NCBI GenBank assembly: GCA_963734495.1
Contig: CAVTHK010000009.1
Location: 1-64,000 of the forward strand
Reading direction: 5' to 3'
Length of the DNA stretch: 64,000 nt
Source of the DNA: an uncultured Spirochaetota bacterium
GTDB taxonomy: Bacteria; Spirochaetota; Spirochaetia; SZUA-6; CAVTHK01
Position numbers and translations under genes: made by a program. The notes below the pieces were generated by a model, which worked only from the letters and a program-made list of their open reading frames with translations, was not told the origin of the DNA and did not search any database. This document shows positions 5,025 through 12,828 of the stretch, in pieces; the stretch's first letter is position 1, and every line of letters begins with the position of its first letter.

Positions 5025-5786
5025 TCAGAACCGGTACGTCTTCCCCTGCGTGAAGAAGCTGAGCCGCCGGCGGTGCAGCGCGCGCACCTGGGCGCGGATG
5101 CGGGCCAGGTGGCGGGGCTTCGCGTGGTAGAGGAAGACCGGCACGTCGCGCTTCAGCTTGCGCAGCTCCGTGTCGAGCGTCTGCGGCGTGAGGTGACCGG
5201 ACACGTTCGCGAGGTCCTGCAGCTCGTTCGGGAACGACGTCTCGGTGACGACGGCCTTCAGGTTCTTCGTCTCGTTCACCAGCTCCCAGAAGCGGTCCGT
5301 CGGGCCGGTGTCGCTCGAGTAGGCGATGCTCCCCGCCTTGTCCTCGACGATGAGCCCCGTCGTCGGCACGATGTGCGACACCGCCACCGTGCGGATCGTG
5401 AGCCCGTTGACGCGGAACGGCTCCTCGATCGGCACCTCGATCAGCTTGAGCACCGGGGTGAGGTCGTTCGGCAGGCAGGTGAAATCGGGCCAGGTGTTGT
5501 TGTTGAAGAGGTGGTTCTTCATCGACGTGATCACTTCGGGGATCGCGTAGATGCTCAGCGTGAAGCCGGGGGCCGAGAAGTTGTTGTCGATCAGGAACGG
5601 CAGCGAGCAGGTGTGGTCGAGGTGCGAGTGCGAAATGACGACGTCCTTCACCTTGACCTGCTCGCGCAGGCTCAGCGCGCCCGAGATCCAGCCGGCGTCG
5701 AGGCACACGCTGTCGTTCACGAGGAACGAGGTCATCCCGTGTCCCTGGACGTTCCCGCCGTAGCACCCGAGCACCCGGAACTTCAT
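5025..5786 (-). CDS. Class II cAMP phosphodiesterase-like MBL-fold hydrolase
   Basis: VLGCYGG, LDAG, SHSHLDH, FNNNTWPDF, SSDTGP, GHLTP. Confidence 0.85.
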   Translation of the reverse strand: MKFRVLGCYGGNVQGHGMTSFLVNDSVCLDAGWISGALSLREQVKVKDVVISHSHLDHTCSLPFLIDNNFSAPGFTLSIYAIPEVITSMKNHLFNNNTWPDFTCLPNDLTPVLKLIEVPIEEPFRVNGLTIRTVAVSHIVPTTGLIVEDKAGSIAYSSDTGPTDRFWELVNETKNLKAVVTETSFPNELQDLANVSGHLTPQTLDTELRKLKRDVPVFLYHAKPRHLARIRAQVRALHRRRLSFFTQGKTYRF

Positions 5787-6007
5787 CTGCACACCCCCGC
5801 AAGTACTTCTCTTCGCGACGGTTGCGGGAAGCCCGCCCGAATCTCGCGACCGTAGCACGTGGCTCAGGCAGTGGTCAAGTGCGCGCTCACCCTGCCCGCC
5901 GGTCACCCGTCTGCCCGTATCCGCGGCCACCCGCTCGCGACATCACCCTCGTGCGCGCGAGCCCATCGGCCGTTCCGCGGACCGCCGCGGCCTATACTCG
6001 GGCCATG

Positions 6008-8062
6008 GTGCGTCGTGACGCGACAGAAGCATCGACTCCGCAAGGGGCAGGTGGGACTGTCGCTCGCTGCGCTTCTCCAGCGGGTGCAAGTCCCGTCCCG
6101 GTAAGCGCCGGAGCGCCGGGTAGCAGGCCCCAGGCGTCGGAGGGAGACCTCCGCGCCCGAGCGGGGCGTCGAAAGCCCGTGAGGCGGCGAGAGCTGCGCA
6201 GCGGGGAGCAAGCACGCGGGCCGCAACATGAAGTGAAGCCTGCAGCCTCGACAGAGGAACAATCCGGGAGCCGAGCCGCTCATGTCACGGCGAAGGCAAG
6301 ACCGGCGGCGCGAGATCCGGAGCGCGCCGCTGGCCCCGGCGGGGTACGGGGCGCAGCACGCGTGCAAGGAGAAGTGCGGAACACGAGAGACCCGTCTGCG
6401 CAGCCGGCGTCACGGCAAGGTGGCTCGTATAAGCCGAAGGCGAAATCGAGCGCTGCGCAGCGGGAGTCCGAGGGGATCGTAGTACCGGCGATGGCCGCGA
6501 CGAACAACGCGGTCGGAGGGAAGGATCCCTGCGGTGGTCGAGCCGACGGAGCAGGTAAGCGCGAGGGAATGGCCGGCAAGACCGGACCTAACGACCCCGG
6601 CGGCCGTAGGCCGCGCGACAAAGTGCGACAACTGCAACGTCGACTGTGGGCCGCGGCCAAGCGGGCTCCGGGGCGACGCTTCCATGCGCTGTACGACCAC
6701 ATCTGGAGGGGTGACGTCCTCCGGGAAGCGTGGAAGCGGGTGAGGCGGAACCGCGGCGCGGCGGGCGTCGACAGCCAGACGATCCGCGACGTCGAGCAGA
6801 GCGGCGTCGAGCGCTTCCTGGAAGAGCTCGGCGACGAGCTGCGCGACAGGCAAGTATCGGCCGAGCTGGTGCGGCGCCGGTACATCCCGAAGGCCGATGG
6901 AAGGAAGCGGCCGCTGGGGATCCCGACGGTGCGAGACCGAGTGGTGCAGATGGCGGCGAAGCTGGTGCTGGAGCCGATCTTCGAGGCGGACTTCTTGCCC
7001 GTCTCGTACGGCTTCCGGCCGAAGCGGAGCGCGACGATGGCGCTGGAGGCGCTGCGGAAGCTCGGCGCCAAGGGTGGGCATCACGTGCTCGACGCCGACA
7101 TCCGCGACTACTTCGGAAGCATCGACCACGAGAAGCTGATGAAGCTCGTCGCGCGGCGCGTCTCGGATCGGCGGGTGCTGAAGCTGCTGCGGCAGTGGCT
7201 CGAGGCAGGAGTGATGGAAGAGGGCACCGTCTCAGCGACGGTGGCCGGCACGCCGCAGGGCGGAGTGATCTCGCCGTTGCTCTCGAACATCTACCTGCAC
7301 GTGCTCGACGTGCTGTGGACGCGCCACAGCGCCCCTCTGGGGACGCTGGTGCGCTACGCGGACGACTTCGTCGTGATGTGCCGCACCGCGAGGGACTGCG
7401 AGCAGGCCGAGGAGCGCATCAGGGGGATCCTGGCGCGTCTCGGGCTCGAGCTGCACCCGGACAAGACGAGGCGAGTCGAGCTCTTCGATGGCAAGGAGGG
7501 CTTCGACTTTCTCGGCTGCCATCTGCACAAGCGCCTGAGCGGCAAGCTGTGGGAGCAGAGGCGGAAGCGCCTCTACTTCCTGCAGCGCTGGCCGTCGCAG
7601 CGCTCGATGCAGCGCATTCGGCAGCGCGTGAAGGAGCTGACTCCGCGGTCGCGATGCCACGCGGACATCCGCGATGTCATCGCCGACCTGAACCCCGTGC
7701 TTCGGGGCTGGGGCAACTACTTCCGCACCGGGAACGCCGCGCACCGCTTCAACCAGCTCGACACGCTACGTCTGGCGGCGGCTCGTCGCCCTGCGCGTCA
7801 AGCGCAAGGAACGGCACCTCCGTCCCGGCGAGGTCGAGCGCTGGACCCGCGAGTCCTTCCAGAACCTCGGCCTCCACCGCCTGCGCGGCACCGTCCGCTA
7901 TCCGGAGCAGCCCTTCTGGCAACAGGAGACCGCGTAATGCTGCGTCCCGAGAGACCACCGGTAAGCCGTGTGCGGGAAATCCGCACGCACGGTTTGAACG
8001 GGGGTCTTGCTTTCCTGCACTCTGTGCCGCAAGCACGGGAAAGGATAGAAGGATCTACCAAT
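6008..8062 (+). mobile_element. Group II intron (ribozyme plus RT ORF)
   Basis: 5' end GTGCG at 6008; EBS1 stem-loop GCCG-ctCATGTCa-CGGCGAAGGC at about 6275-6296; domain V AAGCCGTGTGCGGGAAATCCGCACGCACGGTTT at about 7963-7995; domain VI ending CTACCAAT at 8062. Confidence 0.9.
6569..7937 (+). CDS. ltrA: Group II intron reverse transcriptase/maturase (no endonuclease domain; apparent frameshift at about 7765)
   Basis: RPLGIPTVRDR, SYGFRP, GTPQGGVISPLLSNIYLH, YADD, FDFLG, LNPVLRGWGNYF. Confidence 0.93.
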
Positions 8063-8974
8063 GGGCAGCCTGCCACCGCTGATGCCGCGGCTGCCGGCCG
8101 GGGCGCCACGCGCCGCGCGGATGGATCGTCTGGCCTGGCGCGCGGGCGCGTGCTTCGAATCGCATGGCGTGCGCATCGGCGTCCGATCGAACGACCCCCG
8201 CGTCATCGAGCAGCTCCCGTCGGTCTTGCCACCCGGATCGCGGCACGAGCCGTCGTCGTCGATCGTCGAGGAGATCTTCTCGGTCTGGGTGAGGGCGGGC
8301 GCGGGTCGCTCCGAACGGCGCATCCGCATCTACGCGGGGGACACGCGCCTCGGCCGGGCGCGGGAGCTGTCGCGGGCGTTGCCGGCGCTCGAGTCGGCGC
8401 TCCGACTGAAGGTGGCCGAGGCGTCGCCCGAGCACGTCTTCGTCCACGCGGGGGTCGTGGCCTGGCGCGGTCGCGCGATCCTGGTGCCGGGGCGAAGCCG
8501 CAGCGGCAAGACGACGCTGGTCGCGGAGCTGGTGAAGGCCGGCGCCAGCTATCTCTCGGACGAGTTCGCGCCGCTCGACCACGAGGGGCGCGTCCACCCC
8601 TTCGCGAAGCCGCTCACGATCCGCGCCGGCGGCTGCGACCTCCATGCCCGCCGCTGTCGCGCCGAGGAGCTCGGCGGCTCCGTCGGCCGAGGGGCGTTGC
8701 GCGTCGGCCTCGTCGTCTTCGCCGAGTACCACCCCGGCTGCGTCGTGGCAGCCGACGACGCTCACGCACGGCCAGGGTGTGCTCGAGATGCTCGCGCACA
8801 CCGTGCCGGCCCGGCTCCGGCCGGAGGCCGCGCTCGAGGCGCTCGACCGCGCGCTCGCCGGCGCGACGCTGCTCCGAGGCGCGAGGGGAGAGGCGGACGT
8901 GACGGCGCGACGGCTGCTCGAGACGCTCGAAGGCCGGGCGCCCGGCCCCGATCGCGTGTCAGGAGGCCCCATGA
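8063..8974 (+). CDS. HPr kinase-related P-loop kinase (3' exon; ATG at 6005 is the 5' exon); frameshifted
   Basis: VFVHAGVV, GRSRSGKTT, YLSDE motifs typical of HprK-like / lasso-cluster kinases. Confidence 0.75.
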
Positions 8975-9527
8975 GACCCTTGGCGCGCAGAGACGGGCTC
9001 GTGGTCCGCGACCTCGCCGACGAGACGCTCGTCTACGACCGCGAGCGCCACCAGGCGCACTGCCTGAATCGCACGGCCGGCCATCGTCTTCCGGCACTGC
9101 GACGGAACCCGCAGCCTGGAGGAGATCGCGGCGCTGCTGGATGAGGGCGACGATCCGCTGGCCCGCGCGGCGATCGTCAAGCTCGCCCTCGAGCAGCTCT
9201 CGGCCGCGCGGTTGCTGGTCGAGGACGAGGAGGCCGGTCCGGCCACTGCGCGAAGGCGACGCCGCCGTGGCCTCACGCCGCGAGCTGCTGCGACTCGCGG
9301 CACTCGCCCGTTCCCGTGATCGCCTCGATCGTGGCGCCGACCCCGGCTCAGGCGGCGAGCGCGTGCGTCCCCGCATGGCCGATGCTGCAACGCGAGCAAC
9401 GACTGCCAGCCGTGCGCCCTTATGGGAGCGATGGCAGCTATGTCTGCGATCCTCGACTCCAGACGGTGTCTGTCGAGCTACGGGATGTCCTGAGCTGCGC
9501 CACCGAGAAGTCCTCCTGTGCCGCTGA
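8971..9527 (+). CDS. PqqD/RRE domain protein with SRRxLL motif and Cys-rich C-terminal tail (frameshifted)
   Basis: AGGAGG RBS; LADETLVYDRERHQAHCLNRTA..CDG..LEEIA..ALEQLSAARLL (RRE), then SRRELLRLAAL..PVIASIVAPTPAQAAS and many Cys codons. Confidence 0.75.
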
Positions 9528-11039: not shown

Positions 11040-12828
11040 ACGCCGTGCAGGCCTGCCAGCAGGATCTACCTCGGCCTGCGGACTCCTCGAGCCGCCGGCT
11101 GCCTTCGAGCAGCAGCTGCTCGGTCGGTGCGAGCGGCGTGCTCGGGCCGGGATCGCCGGGCACGAAGTGGAAGCTGCCCTCGTGGCCAGGCCAGGAACAC
11201 GTAGACCGCCTCGGTCCGGGTGAGGTCGCCGACGCGCGCCGAGACGATCTCCCCGTCGCGGAAGCCGAGCACCGCGGCGCCCGGCTCGCCGTCCGCCCCG
11301 CTCACGCTCAGGACACCCGTGAGGCGTCCCTGGTTGCAGATCTGGACGAGCGTCGGCGCGCCGAACACCTCGACGCTGGCCCTCGAGCGCCCCGACCGTC
11401 GAGGCGGCGCGCTCCTCGTCGGGGCGATGCGGCGTGCCGAGGTCCGAGTAGCGCGTCATCAGCAGCTGCATGCGGATCAGCAGCTCGCGGATCGGCGTCG
11501 TCTTCGAGAGGAAGTCGTCGGCCCCGATCTGCAGCGCGCGGTGGCGCTCGCGGTACTTGTCGGAGCCCGAGATGAAGACGAGCGGCGTGCGGGCGAGCAG
11601 CGGGTGGCTGCGCACGCGCCGGCAGAACTCGAAGCCGTCCAGCTCGGGCATGCTGAGGTCGGCGAGGATGATCCAGGGGCGGTGCTGCACGGCGATCTGC
11701 CAGGCGGCCGCGCCGTCTCCGGCCTCGTAGATCGTGAAGCCCTGGGCCGCGAGCGGCATCGCCAGGTACCTGCGGAAGACCGCGTCCTCGTCGGCGATCA
11801 GCGCCGCGCGGAACATCGGCGGCACGCTGTCGAAGTCCGGCATGTCGTCGTCCGCGGGCGAGCGCAGCGGCGCGGCGGAGCGGGGGACCTCCGGCGGGAT
11901 CTCGTCCGCGATCACGCCCACGCGGTTGGCGCTCACCCAGCCCGCGAGCCCGGGCCGCCACACCTTGGTGTCCTCGGGGATGGAGCCGAGCACGAGGTCC
12001 ACCAGCTCGTCGAGCGTCACGGGGCCCTCGTTGGCGTCCGTCCTGGAGGTAGAGCCACTGCGTCCGGCCCCAGGCCGCGGCCGTCCGGCGGCGGTTCGCC
12101 GGCGTCGCGGACCGCGGCGGGGGCGAGCGGCGCGCGGCGACCGCCTCGGCGGCGAGGGAGGCGATCCCGTCCGGCGGGGTGCCGGCGCCCGCGGCGGACT
12201 CCTGGGCCGGCGGAGGCGTCGGCCGGGGGCCGAGCGGTCCCCGCGCACGGGCCGGGCGAGCCGCTCGAAGACGAGCGACGTGATCCCGCCGAGCGTCTCC
12301 TGGACCCCGACGCCCTCGACCGCCACCGCTTCGTAGCGCGGCAGGCCGCGCGGGTTGAGCTGCGCCTCGAGCAGCGCCAGGGGCAGCGCCGTCGCGAGGT
12401 CGCGCTTGTTGTACTGGATCACCTGCGGGAGCGCGGGGTCGAGGTCGTTCGCGAGCAGGTTCTGCCGCAGGCCGCGCAGGCTCTCGACGTTCGCGTCGAG
12501 CATCGAGGCCTGGCTGTCCGCGACGAAGACGACGGCGTCGCAGCCCTCGAGGACCATGCGCCGCGTGGTCTCGTAGAAGACCCGGCCGGGCACCGTGTAC
12601 ACCTGGATGCGCGGGCGCATGCCCGCGACGGCGGCGGGCTCGAGCGGGACGAAGTCGAAGAACAGCGTGAGGTCCGCCTGCGTCGCGAGCGACACGAGCT
12701 TGCCCTTGCGTGCGGAGCGGCGCGTGCTCGTGGATCCAGCGCAGGTTCGTCGTCTTGCCCGCGAGGCCGGGCCCGTAGTAGACGAGCTTGAGCGTGACCT
12801 CGTTCGTCGCCCGGTTGAAGAGCGGCAT
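11040..12828 (-). CDS. MglA-like small GTPase fused to GYF_2, response-regulator receiver and DUF4388 (PatA-N) domains (frameshifted; 3' end approximate)
   Basis: KLVYYGPGLAGKTTN, TLFFDF, QYNKRDL; GPVTLDEL..TKVWRPGLAGW; LIADED..ILADLSMPELDG..GADDFLSK; LVQICNQGRLTGVL..FRDGEIVSA. Confidence 0.8.

Follow-up and report, generated by a model that had tools for sequence, protein, structure and literature searches.

Introduction

How does a bacterial group II intron come to sit directly behind a start codon, where the upstream exon of its host message may be only three nucleotides long? This question is raised by a 2056-nt intron in an uncultured Spirochaetota bacterium (GTDB lineage SZUA-6, CAVTHK01). 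The intron lies within the first 64,000 nucleotides of contig CAVTHK010000009.1 (GenBank assembly GCA_963734495.1), a stretch referred to below as the window, where it separates an ATG from the second codon of a gene for an HprK-related-kinase-like protein. An earlier note on this DNA had proposed that the intron RNA recognises the initiation codon and that the host message might be leaderless. A IIB1 lineage associated with start and stop codons has been described previously (Michel et al. 2007). Its members are monophyletic and have a large insertion in domain I, and the studied member, EcKTE56.groEL, encodes a CL1-type reverse transcriptase (RT) with a C-terminal endonuclease (En) domain; the way in which these introns colonise start and stop codons is stated to be an open question (PMC12584367, excerpt).

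Here, we conclude, with a probability of roughly 0.75, that the window element is a complete group II intron without an endonuclease domain, belonging to a lineage that lives between the start codon and codon 2 of leaderless-type genes, finds its site by three base pairings, appears to use the promoter and start codon of the host and carries an AUG of its own at the 3' end. As far as sequence can tell, comparison among relatives shows the rule for the site and the three pairings, assigns the promoter box and codon to the host, and reveals the terminal AUG and the maintained reading frame.

Insertion site of the lineage

A scan with the RT sequence, using one genome per species, confirmed 593 relatives, and the best 80 were analyzed together with two lineage copies in the genome of origin (5.38 Mb, 18 contigs, 83% complete). 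The 5' end of the intron was located in 65 of the 80 loci and the 3' end in 59, in both cases plus the two local copies; locus L057 was dropped from the counts because another intron is nested in its domain V. The 5'-flank set comprises the 63 copies in which the 5' end was found and the upstream DNA extends for 45 nt or more.

In this set, the three bases before the intron are ATG in 50 copies, GTG in 10, TTG in one and ATT in two. A TAnnnT hexamer stands ahead of the start codon in 61 of the 63, with a spacer of 6 nt (41 copies), 7 nt (17) or 8 nt (3). When control anchors were moved 12-35 nt upstream in the same flanks, the rule held in a mean of only 1.1 of 63 copies, and the arrangement is therefore far beyond chance. 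L024, with GACAAT, departs from the rule, as does L084, a copy from outside the lineage. The window reads TATACT (5993-5998), the spacer CGGGCC (5999-6004), ATG (6005-6007) and GTGCG (6008-6012). The arrangement reported in the earlier note, an intron immediately behind a start codon and a -10-type box 6 nt ahead of that codon, is present in the window sequence, and the coordinates given there for every named feature are right (TATACT, ATG, GTGCG, CATGTC at 6281-6286, GAAGGA and ATG at 8061-8063). The test proposed in that note, whether other copies also follow start codons, revealed a lineage-wide habit.

Position -4 is C in 45 of the 63 copies; a usual transcription start has a pyrimidine at -1 and a purine at +1. 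At these sites a -10 element lies 6-8 nt before the start codon and there is no Shine-Dalgarno (SD) sequence. Mapped leaderless promoters of M. tuberculosis have TANNNT centred 7-12 bp upstream of the start, without a -35 consensus (PMC3898074, excerpt). Given the canonical -10 distance of the hexamer, this mapped leaderless geometry and the predominance of C at -4, transcription is predicted to start at the A or G of the start codon itself.

The close intron relatives L020-L025 have flanks that are unrelated apart from TAnnnT and ATG. Moreover, identical or 98%-identical copies within one genome lie in different genes with matching intron-binding sites (IBS2, IBS1 and IBS3, the targets of the exon-binding sites EBS2, EBS1 and EBS3). 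Two 100%-identical Embleya copies both follow TACGGTG..CCATG, with ACCGA on the other side of the intron, two 98%-identical Pelomonas copies follow GAAAATC and GACAATC, and the flank TAGAATCCCG occurs twice, in L045 and L046.

In a quick maximum-likelihood tree of 78 RT rows (L048, L080 and C6c being left out for stops and L074 for length), all copies with a readable flank fall inside one 67-row group. Its members come from Pseudomonadota, Myxococcota, Planctomycetota, Spirochaetota, Acidobacteriota, Actinomycetota, Chloroflexota, Gemmatimonadota, Nitrospirota and Melainabacteria, and the lineage is present in at least 10 bacterial phyla. Seven Bacillota rows and one 4-row clade are outside the group; the Bacillota intron L075 (52% protein identity) follows a terminator-like hairpin and a T-run. 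In a plasmid collection, the Embleya copy alone was close (64%), with the next-best row listed at 41.5% and all others below 60%; the gene table of this collection lists nothing under the Embleya RT match. The two identical copies of Embleya sp. NBC_00896 (L132 and L133, 1976 nt each) reside in different genes on replicons of 3.1 Mb and 7.4 Mb, which points to recent mobility. Besides this Embleya strain (also L036), the carriers that can be cultured include Sorangium sp. So ce176 (L015), Pelomonas dachongensis DC23W (L024), which has three copies, and Dactylosporangium sp. CA-092794 (L047).

Origin of the promoter element and start codon

Intron-less relatives were examined for three hosts. 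In Dactylosporangium, seven of seven empty sites from the same genus read TAnnnT-N6-GTG-CTS-GTC, the filled site being TAGGCT-GCCGCG-GTG[intron...CCAATG]CCG-GTC. Seven of seven Sorangium sites read TAGGCT-N6/7-ATG-CGC-GAC. For ilvE of Mycobacterium, nine loci were fetched and the junction was readable in L095, L100 and L103 only, all three with TA[GC]AAT-N7-ATG-ACC-AGC; the probe failed or matched elsewhere in L096, L097 and L098, and L099, L101 and L102 were left out. All 17 empty sites have the same hexamer and a single start codon, so that the promoter and the codon belong to the host.

In Dactylosporangium the host GTG is kept on the 5' side and the codon on the 3' side is ATG, and in 13 of 58 copies overall the two ends carry different codons. 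Together with the empty sites, these differing codons define the excised unit: its first base is the G that follows the start codon, and its last is the G of the terminal AUG (6008-8063). A target-site duplication was also considered as the origin of the terminal AUG and was ruled out by the 13 differing pairs.

No empty site for the gene in the window was found when 40 relatives were searched with the 3'-exon DNA, and a protein-based scan for the kinase gene returned distant homologues only (best L105, 59%). No empty site for the Pelomonas insertions was found in 40 other genomes of the family. In L105 (positions 940-1010), which represents a kinase homologue in a metagenome-assembled genome of Acidobacteriota, TAGACT lies about 25 nt upstream and the gene has a short SD leader, GGGGGGAAGGGA. 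The kinase gene family is thus not leaderless everywhere.

Base pairing with the target

Domains I-III of 55 copies were aligned. The column of C6347 (EBS3) forms 50 Watson-Crick pairs, three G-U pairs and two mismatches with the base after the terminal AUG (IBS3), and all four bases are used in this column (T 22, C 16, G 14, A 3). EBS1 is CAUN in the loop CUCAUGUCA, the fourth base of which pairs with position -4 in 46 copies by Watson-Crick and in six by G-U pairing; at the GUG start sites of L034 and L042, EBS1 has CAC. No covariation was found in this alignment at positions -5 to -8, where an IBS2 directly beside IBS1 would lie. With the comparison anchored on the hexamer, the stretch 6254-6258 (GAGGA) faces hexamer positions 3-6 and the next base (5995-5999). 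Across 53 copies, this EBS2-IBS2 pairing forms a mean of 3.9 of five pairs, compared to 2.9 +/- 0.12 for shuffled partners (maximum 3.32 in 2000 shuffles). All 53 copies have an invariant A opposite the final T of the hexamer, and the neighbouring position covaries (G-C 13, U-A 24, C-G 6). Hexamer positions 1 and 2 (T and A) had no RNA partner in the pairing scan, yet they are kept in 61 of 63 copies.

In the window copy, EBS1, EBS2 (four of five pairs) and EBS3 all match the site. Comparison of the copies thus shows a predicted intron RNA that recognises its site by the EBS2, EBS1 and EBS3 pairings. The EBS2 pairing also explains why the sites of identical copies resemble each other only at the pairing bases. 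Pairing of the intron RNA with the start codon, as the earlier note had suggested, is borne out; EBS1 itself, drawn there as CATGTC with five of six pairs, is reduced to four of four on CAUG, as positions -5 and -6 do not covary.

The 3' end and the splice site

The intron ends with ...ACCA followed by ATG in 57 of 61 copies, by GTG in three and by ATT in one (a copy on contig C6 of the same genome). The host frame that begins at this terminal codon runs for at least 80 codons in 45 of the 61; four more leave the available DNA at 80 codons or later, seven leave it sooner and five are shorter. Host N-termini that can be recognised include MnmE, DnaX, a RhlE-like protein, NadD, IlvE and RibD. 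Since the EBS3 column is variable and the G of AUG is nearly invariant, the partner of EBS3 is the base after AUG, which places the 3' splice site after 8063. Splicing there would ligate ATG to GGC AGC in frame, giving MGS. Consistent with the start assumed in the earlier note, intron-less kinase homologues begin at the same methionine (MGSLP... in 14 of 14 fetched).

The proposal that the 3' end of the intron supplies a start codon holds, with the correction that the whole AUG, and not just AU, is part of the intron. The ready-made SD sequence proposed alongside it, GAAGGA, is present here and is not conserved in the lineage (22 of 61 copies); an SD sequence was accordingly dropped as a lineage feature.

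Reading frame from the host start codon into the intron protein

In 28 of 64 copies, including that of the window, the frame set by the host start codon is open through domains I-III and the whole RT. These fused copies have no stops in that frame and 3-12 in the other two, and each of their 14 distinct start-to-RT distances is divisible by three. Another 28 copies have a coupled stop and start: the upstream frame closes no more than 10 nt away from a start codon that opens the RT frame. The coupling motifs include ATGGTGA at about 375, TAG-GGC-ATG at 481, ATGA at about 130 (L007 and L008), ATGA at about 484 (L058) and GTGA at about 580 (L064). In total, one path leads from the start codon through the ribozyme to the RT in 56 of 64 copies, compared to no fused and four coupled copies of 64 for each of the control frames beginning one or two bases later. 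The RT match begins 618 nt from the start codon here and 546-654 nt from it in 63 of 64 others; in L055, whose intron has about 800 additional bases upstream of the RT, the distance is 1392 nt.

Ribosomes are usually kept out of an intron by a stop shortly behind the 5' junction (PMC3073962, excerpt); to judge from its reading frames, this lineage maintains the opposite, an open frame into the intron. One GenBank record lists a 634-aa fused product as the RT of the intron, which is a gene call and not evidence; annotated lengths for the same intron protein are 634 aa ("RT") versus 406-450 aa. No HNH or En domain was found in three intact relatives, in which Pfam detects RVT_1 and GIIM only and whose proteins end about 40-60 residues past GIIM.

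The window copy and other introns of the genome

The features of the window copy are listed in Table 1. Rfam matches above the gathering thresholds were obtained for RF02003 (6078-6231, 67.4 bits), RF02005 (6244-6345, 51.3 bits) and RF00029 (domains V/VI; 7961-8083, 43.1 bits), and the encoded protein matches RVT_1 (1e-35) and GIIM (1.6e-14) in Pfam. When 7961-8063 was folded, a domain V hairpin and a domain VI with a bulged A8057 were obtained, followed by CC and an unpaired AAUG. The element therefore has the GUGYG 5' end, domain I-IV structure, domains V and VI, RT and maturase, and EBS-IBS pairings of a group II intron.

Table 1. Features of the intron and its insertion site in the window
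Feature	Position	Strand	Basis or remark
TATACT, -10-type promoter hexamer of the host gene, the 3' part of which serves as IBS2	5993-5998	+	TAnnnT in relatives and in intron-less relatives
IBS2 TACTC, partner of EBS2	5995-5999	+	4/5 pairs form at the window site
IBS1 C-ATG	6004-6007	+	covariation at -4 and -3
Original start codon of the host gene; predicted transcription start	6005-6007	+	
Group II intron, 2056 nt, GUGCG ... CUACCAAUG	6008-8063	+	Rfam, ends of relatives, empty sites, EBS3-IBS3 covariation
EBS2 GAGGA, unpaired stretch ahead of the EBS1 hairpin	6254-6258	+	Rfam structure line leaves the stretch unpaired
EBS1 CAUG, in loop CUCAUGUCA (6279-6287)	6281-6284	+	
EBS3 C, partner G8064	6347	+	covariation
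Frame from host ATG through ribozyme domains I-III to reverse transcriptase/maturase	6005-7937	+	TAA at 7935-7937
Conserved internal ATG 6569; RT match begins at 6623	inside frame 6005-7937	+	
Domain V	7962-7996	+	RF00029 and fold
Domain VI; bulged A8057 is the presumed branch point, seventh base from the intron end	8000-8059	+	fold z = -3.7
SD-like GAAGGA in domain VI (3' strand), with 7 nt between it and the terminal AUG	8048-8053	+	
Intron-borne AUG, the last three intron bases, in frame with the host gene	8061-8063	+	
3' exon; G8064 is IBS3 and first base of codon 2 of the HprK-related-kinase-like gene (MGSLPPLMPRL...)	8064-8970	+	

The upstream gene, encoding a metallo-beta-lactamase-fold phosphodiesterase, lies on the opposite strand. 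As it is divergent, there is no co-directional read-in, and transcription of the intron must begin in the short spacer with TATACT. No terminator-like site was found at 5750-6150, and neither a hairpin nor a T-run lies ahead of the intron. The kinase-like host gene has a frame break near 8740 (8735-8745), and its homologues are intact 296-307-aa proteins starting with MGSLP; the host protein matches HprK-related kinase A weakly (64 bits, below the cut-off). A PqqD-like (RRE) reading frame after the kinase (8960-9150) is split between two frames, as is an mglA-like GTPase gene on the minus strand (11308-12828). Such breaks are common in this assembly, and the pattern suggests that they are assembly indels. 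The contigs from sequencing runs X1, X2, X3 and X10 represent related introns: they cover about 6005-8033 and hardly any of the flanks, and the exact match of one DNA contig begins at 6005.

The second lineage copy of this genome lies on contig C6 (about 82560-84484, minus strand, 70% identity). TAGGAT-GGCGCC-ATG precedes it, at the start of a gene for a Rossmann-type dehydrogenase (MAHATVGLLCPGEMG once spliced); ATT takes the place of ATG as the last codon, and the RT match contains three stops. Contig C2 (about 65212-67220) carries a group II intron of another kind, whose DNA is 74% identical over parts of the RT. The 5' end of this intron follows the palindrome CTTCCGCGGAAG, the same 16-nt stretch appears again about 50 nt beyond its 3' end, and it looks like a hairpin-targeting, class C-type intron. 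Two further relatives are unusual in domain V: L009 has about 35 extra bases in the loop, and in L057 (Saccharopolyspora hattusasensis) the domain is broken just past the RT gene, after AAGCCGTATGCGGG, by a sequence starting with GTGTGTCCTGAAAGG, which looks like a second group II intron inside domain V (a twintron).

Proposed working of the intron

In the working that we propose, the host promoter would start transcription at the A (or G) of the start codon, yielding a precursor RNA whose 5' exon is 3 nt long. Ribosomes would load on the 5'-terminal AUG, read through the ribozyme and produce the intron protein, either fused, with an extension of ~200 aa, or by stop/start coupling, and their passage would also keep the 2-kb RNA translated. 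The host protein could come from spliced RNA (AUG joined to GGC...), which would equal the original leaderless message, or alternatively from the terminal AUG of the intron on unspliced RNA. As the predicted transcript begins downstream of IBS2 and position -4, these two would serve DNA targeting only and not forward splicing. Splicing may also gate expression of the kinase and RRE genes, as the earlier note proposed.

A further reading, which we hold tentatively and at a little under even odds, is that the lineage is a dedicated parasite of leaderless genes: it would find them by pairing with the -10 element (on the non-template strand) and the start codon, take the host promoter and AUG for its own RT, and hand the host a replacement AUG. 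The span from EBS2 through EBS1 to EBS3 (+4) is close to the stretch melted in an open complex, and promoter melting may expose the target. The unpaired TA of the hexamer may reflect selection for an active promoter, contacts of the intron protein, or a need for promoter melting.

Alternative explanations

The -10 box and ATG could be part of the mobile element, with the intron carrying its own promoter and start codon. Identical copies in one genome do have similar flanks (TACGGTG..CCATG twice in Embleya, TAGAATCCCG twice in L045/L046), but the likeness is limited to bases that pair with EBS2, EBS1 and EBS3, it is missing from L020-L025 beyond TAnnnT and ATG, and the hexamer and single start codon already exist at the 17 empty sites, which makes this explanation scarcely tenable. 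It also seems improbable that TAnnnT-N6-8-RTG is only a recognition sequence of the intron (IBS2, IBS1 and protein contacts) and that transcripts start elsewhere. The pairing of EBS2 with hexamer positions 3-6, the use of two GAnAAT hexamers in Pelomonas, the lack of a -35 match at 5750-6150 and the short SD leader of the distant kinase homologue L105 would all fit such a sequence. However, the T and A of the hexamer are retained in 61 of 63 copies with no RNA partner in the pairing scan to account for them, the order of spacers (6 > 7 > 8) is that of the canonical distance from -10 to start, and the C at -4 is what a start site should have at -1. In addition, the empty sites leave no room for an SD sequence between hexamer and start codon, the genes there are ordinary host genes (ilvE, an XRE-type regulator, a membrane protein), and a frame maintained from this codon makes sense only with ribosomes starting there.

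The remaining alternatives concern the coding frame, the splice site and the state of this copy. A long frame might arise by accident, without any translated path, as the G+C content in the stretch is 0.57-0.71, such DNA is poor in stop codons, and many copies are close relatives. Composition and ancestry fit poorly with an absence of stops in frame 0 of 28 copies compared to 3-12 in frames 1 and 2, or with 14 lengths that are every one a multiple of three; where the frame is broken, stop/start overlaps with differing motifs and positions restore the path, and the control frames reach only four coupled and no fused copies of 64. An accident is thus very unlikely. Equally hard to sustain is the 3' splice site of the earlier note, which lay between AAU and G (8062/8063), left the exons one base out of frame and called for an assembly indel at 8110-8120. 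It respects the common AY ending of group II introns (PMC8393795, excerpt), and frame breaks do exist elsewhere in the assembly. Nevertheless, the EBS3 column pairs with the base after AUG in 53 of 55 copies and not with the nearly invariant G, and the empty sites have one start codon followed directly by the codon found after the intron's AUG. The C6 copy shows the same one-base offset if AAU is assumed, and splicing at 8063 restores the frame as ATG followed by GGC AGC, the N-terminus (MGS) of the 14 fetched homologues, with the intron one base longer. Finally, the window copy might be a dead relic in a decaying host operon that says nothing on current function. The extra base near 7766 that removes the last ~55 residues of the RT, the compensating indel pair near 6845-6870, the broken kinase gene near 8740 and the C6 copy with its three stops and final ATT are what a relic would show. 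On the other hand, neighbouring conserved genes such as the mglA-like GTPase are broken as well, the genome is 83% complete in only 18 contigs, a pattern that suggests assembly indels, and EBS1, EBS2 and EBS3 still match the window site. We consider a relic unlikely, though it deserves to be taken seriously.

Several observations weigh against the reading of a complete intron that lives at leaderless starts. The window intron ends in ...AAUG, and a UG ending in place of the usual AY is lineage-wide. No fused or coupled path exists in eight of 64 copies, and in the window protein frame one extra base near 7766 shifts or removes the last ~55 residues and a compensating indel pair lies near 6845-6870. 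A sigma-70 scan of 5750-6150 found no -35/-10 pair. A 3-nt 5' exon held by three base pairs should make exon ligation inefficient, and the SD-like motif before the terminal AUG, found in those 22 copies only, is paired within domain VI. A search of sequencing runs found none with the window DNA, the best run containing 14% of the sampled words. Moreover, the copies share ancestry, so that counts overstate independence, the tree is a quick version, and the alignment columns come from one MAFFT run.

Comparison with known group II introns

Like the IIB1 lineage, the introns described here form a bacterial lineage tied to host start or stop codons, in which the codon context is rewritten and the gene is kept. 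Unlike that lineage, as excerpted, they have no large domain I insertion (domains I-III take 546-654 nt, and the domain I match begins at intron nucleotide 71), and their protein has no En domain. The excerpted account of the IIB1 lineage (PMC12584367) makes no mention of -10 boxes, leaderless genes, an exon-fused open reading frame (ORF) or a terminal AUG.

Class C (IIC) introns insert after transcription-terminator hairpins or attC sites (PMC12584367 and PMC7306698, excerpts). The present lineage resembles them in having no endonuclease domain, an EBS1 of about 4 nt and a single-nucleotide EBS3, and in targeting a functional class of site rather than one gene; in the set compared here, the nearest introns outside the lineage, which are from Bacillota, look like IIC members (L075, after a hairpin and T-run). 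In contrast to IIC introns, no hairpin or T-run precedes the window intron, an EBS2-IBS2 pairing of 3-5 bp is supported, and the site is the start of a transcription unit and not its end. This class comparison draws on neighbours in the genome collection and on class descriptions.

Exon-fused mitochondrial introns share insertion in phase 0 but belong to a different RT lineage, and here the upstream exon is the start codon alone, probably on a leaderless bacterial mRNA. To our knowledge, no exon-fused example has been known from bacteria, and none appeared in our literature search. No connection of group II introns with leaderless starts, -10 boxes or bacterial exon-fused ORFs turned up in this full-text search, supplements aside, and the lineage is apparently undescribed.

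Significance

Targeting of a retroelement by pairing with a promoter -10 box and a start codon would be a new logic, and for this lineage it gives a testable answer to the question of start-codon colonisation that the excerpt of PMC12584367 leaves open. Within the literature searched, translation of the intron protein from the host start codon through the ribozyme would be a first among bacterial group II lineages, and it would pit translation against RNA folding on one molecule. Besides, the insertion sites mark predicted leaderless genes in at least 10 phyla. Annotation is misled at such loci, where host genes seem promoterless or appear to begin within the intron. The short readable code of EBS2, a flexible gap, EBS1 and EBS3 could serve retargeting. 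If the lineage is indeed a dedicated parasite of leaderless genes, it would represent a promoter-reading retroelement and a bacterial equivalent of the mitochondrial introns with exon-fused ORFs.

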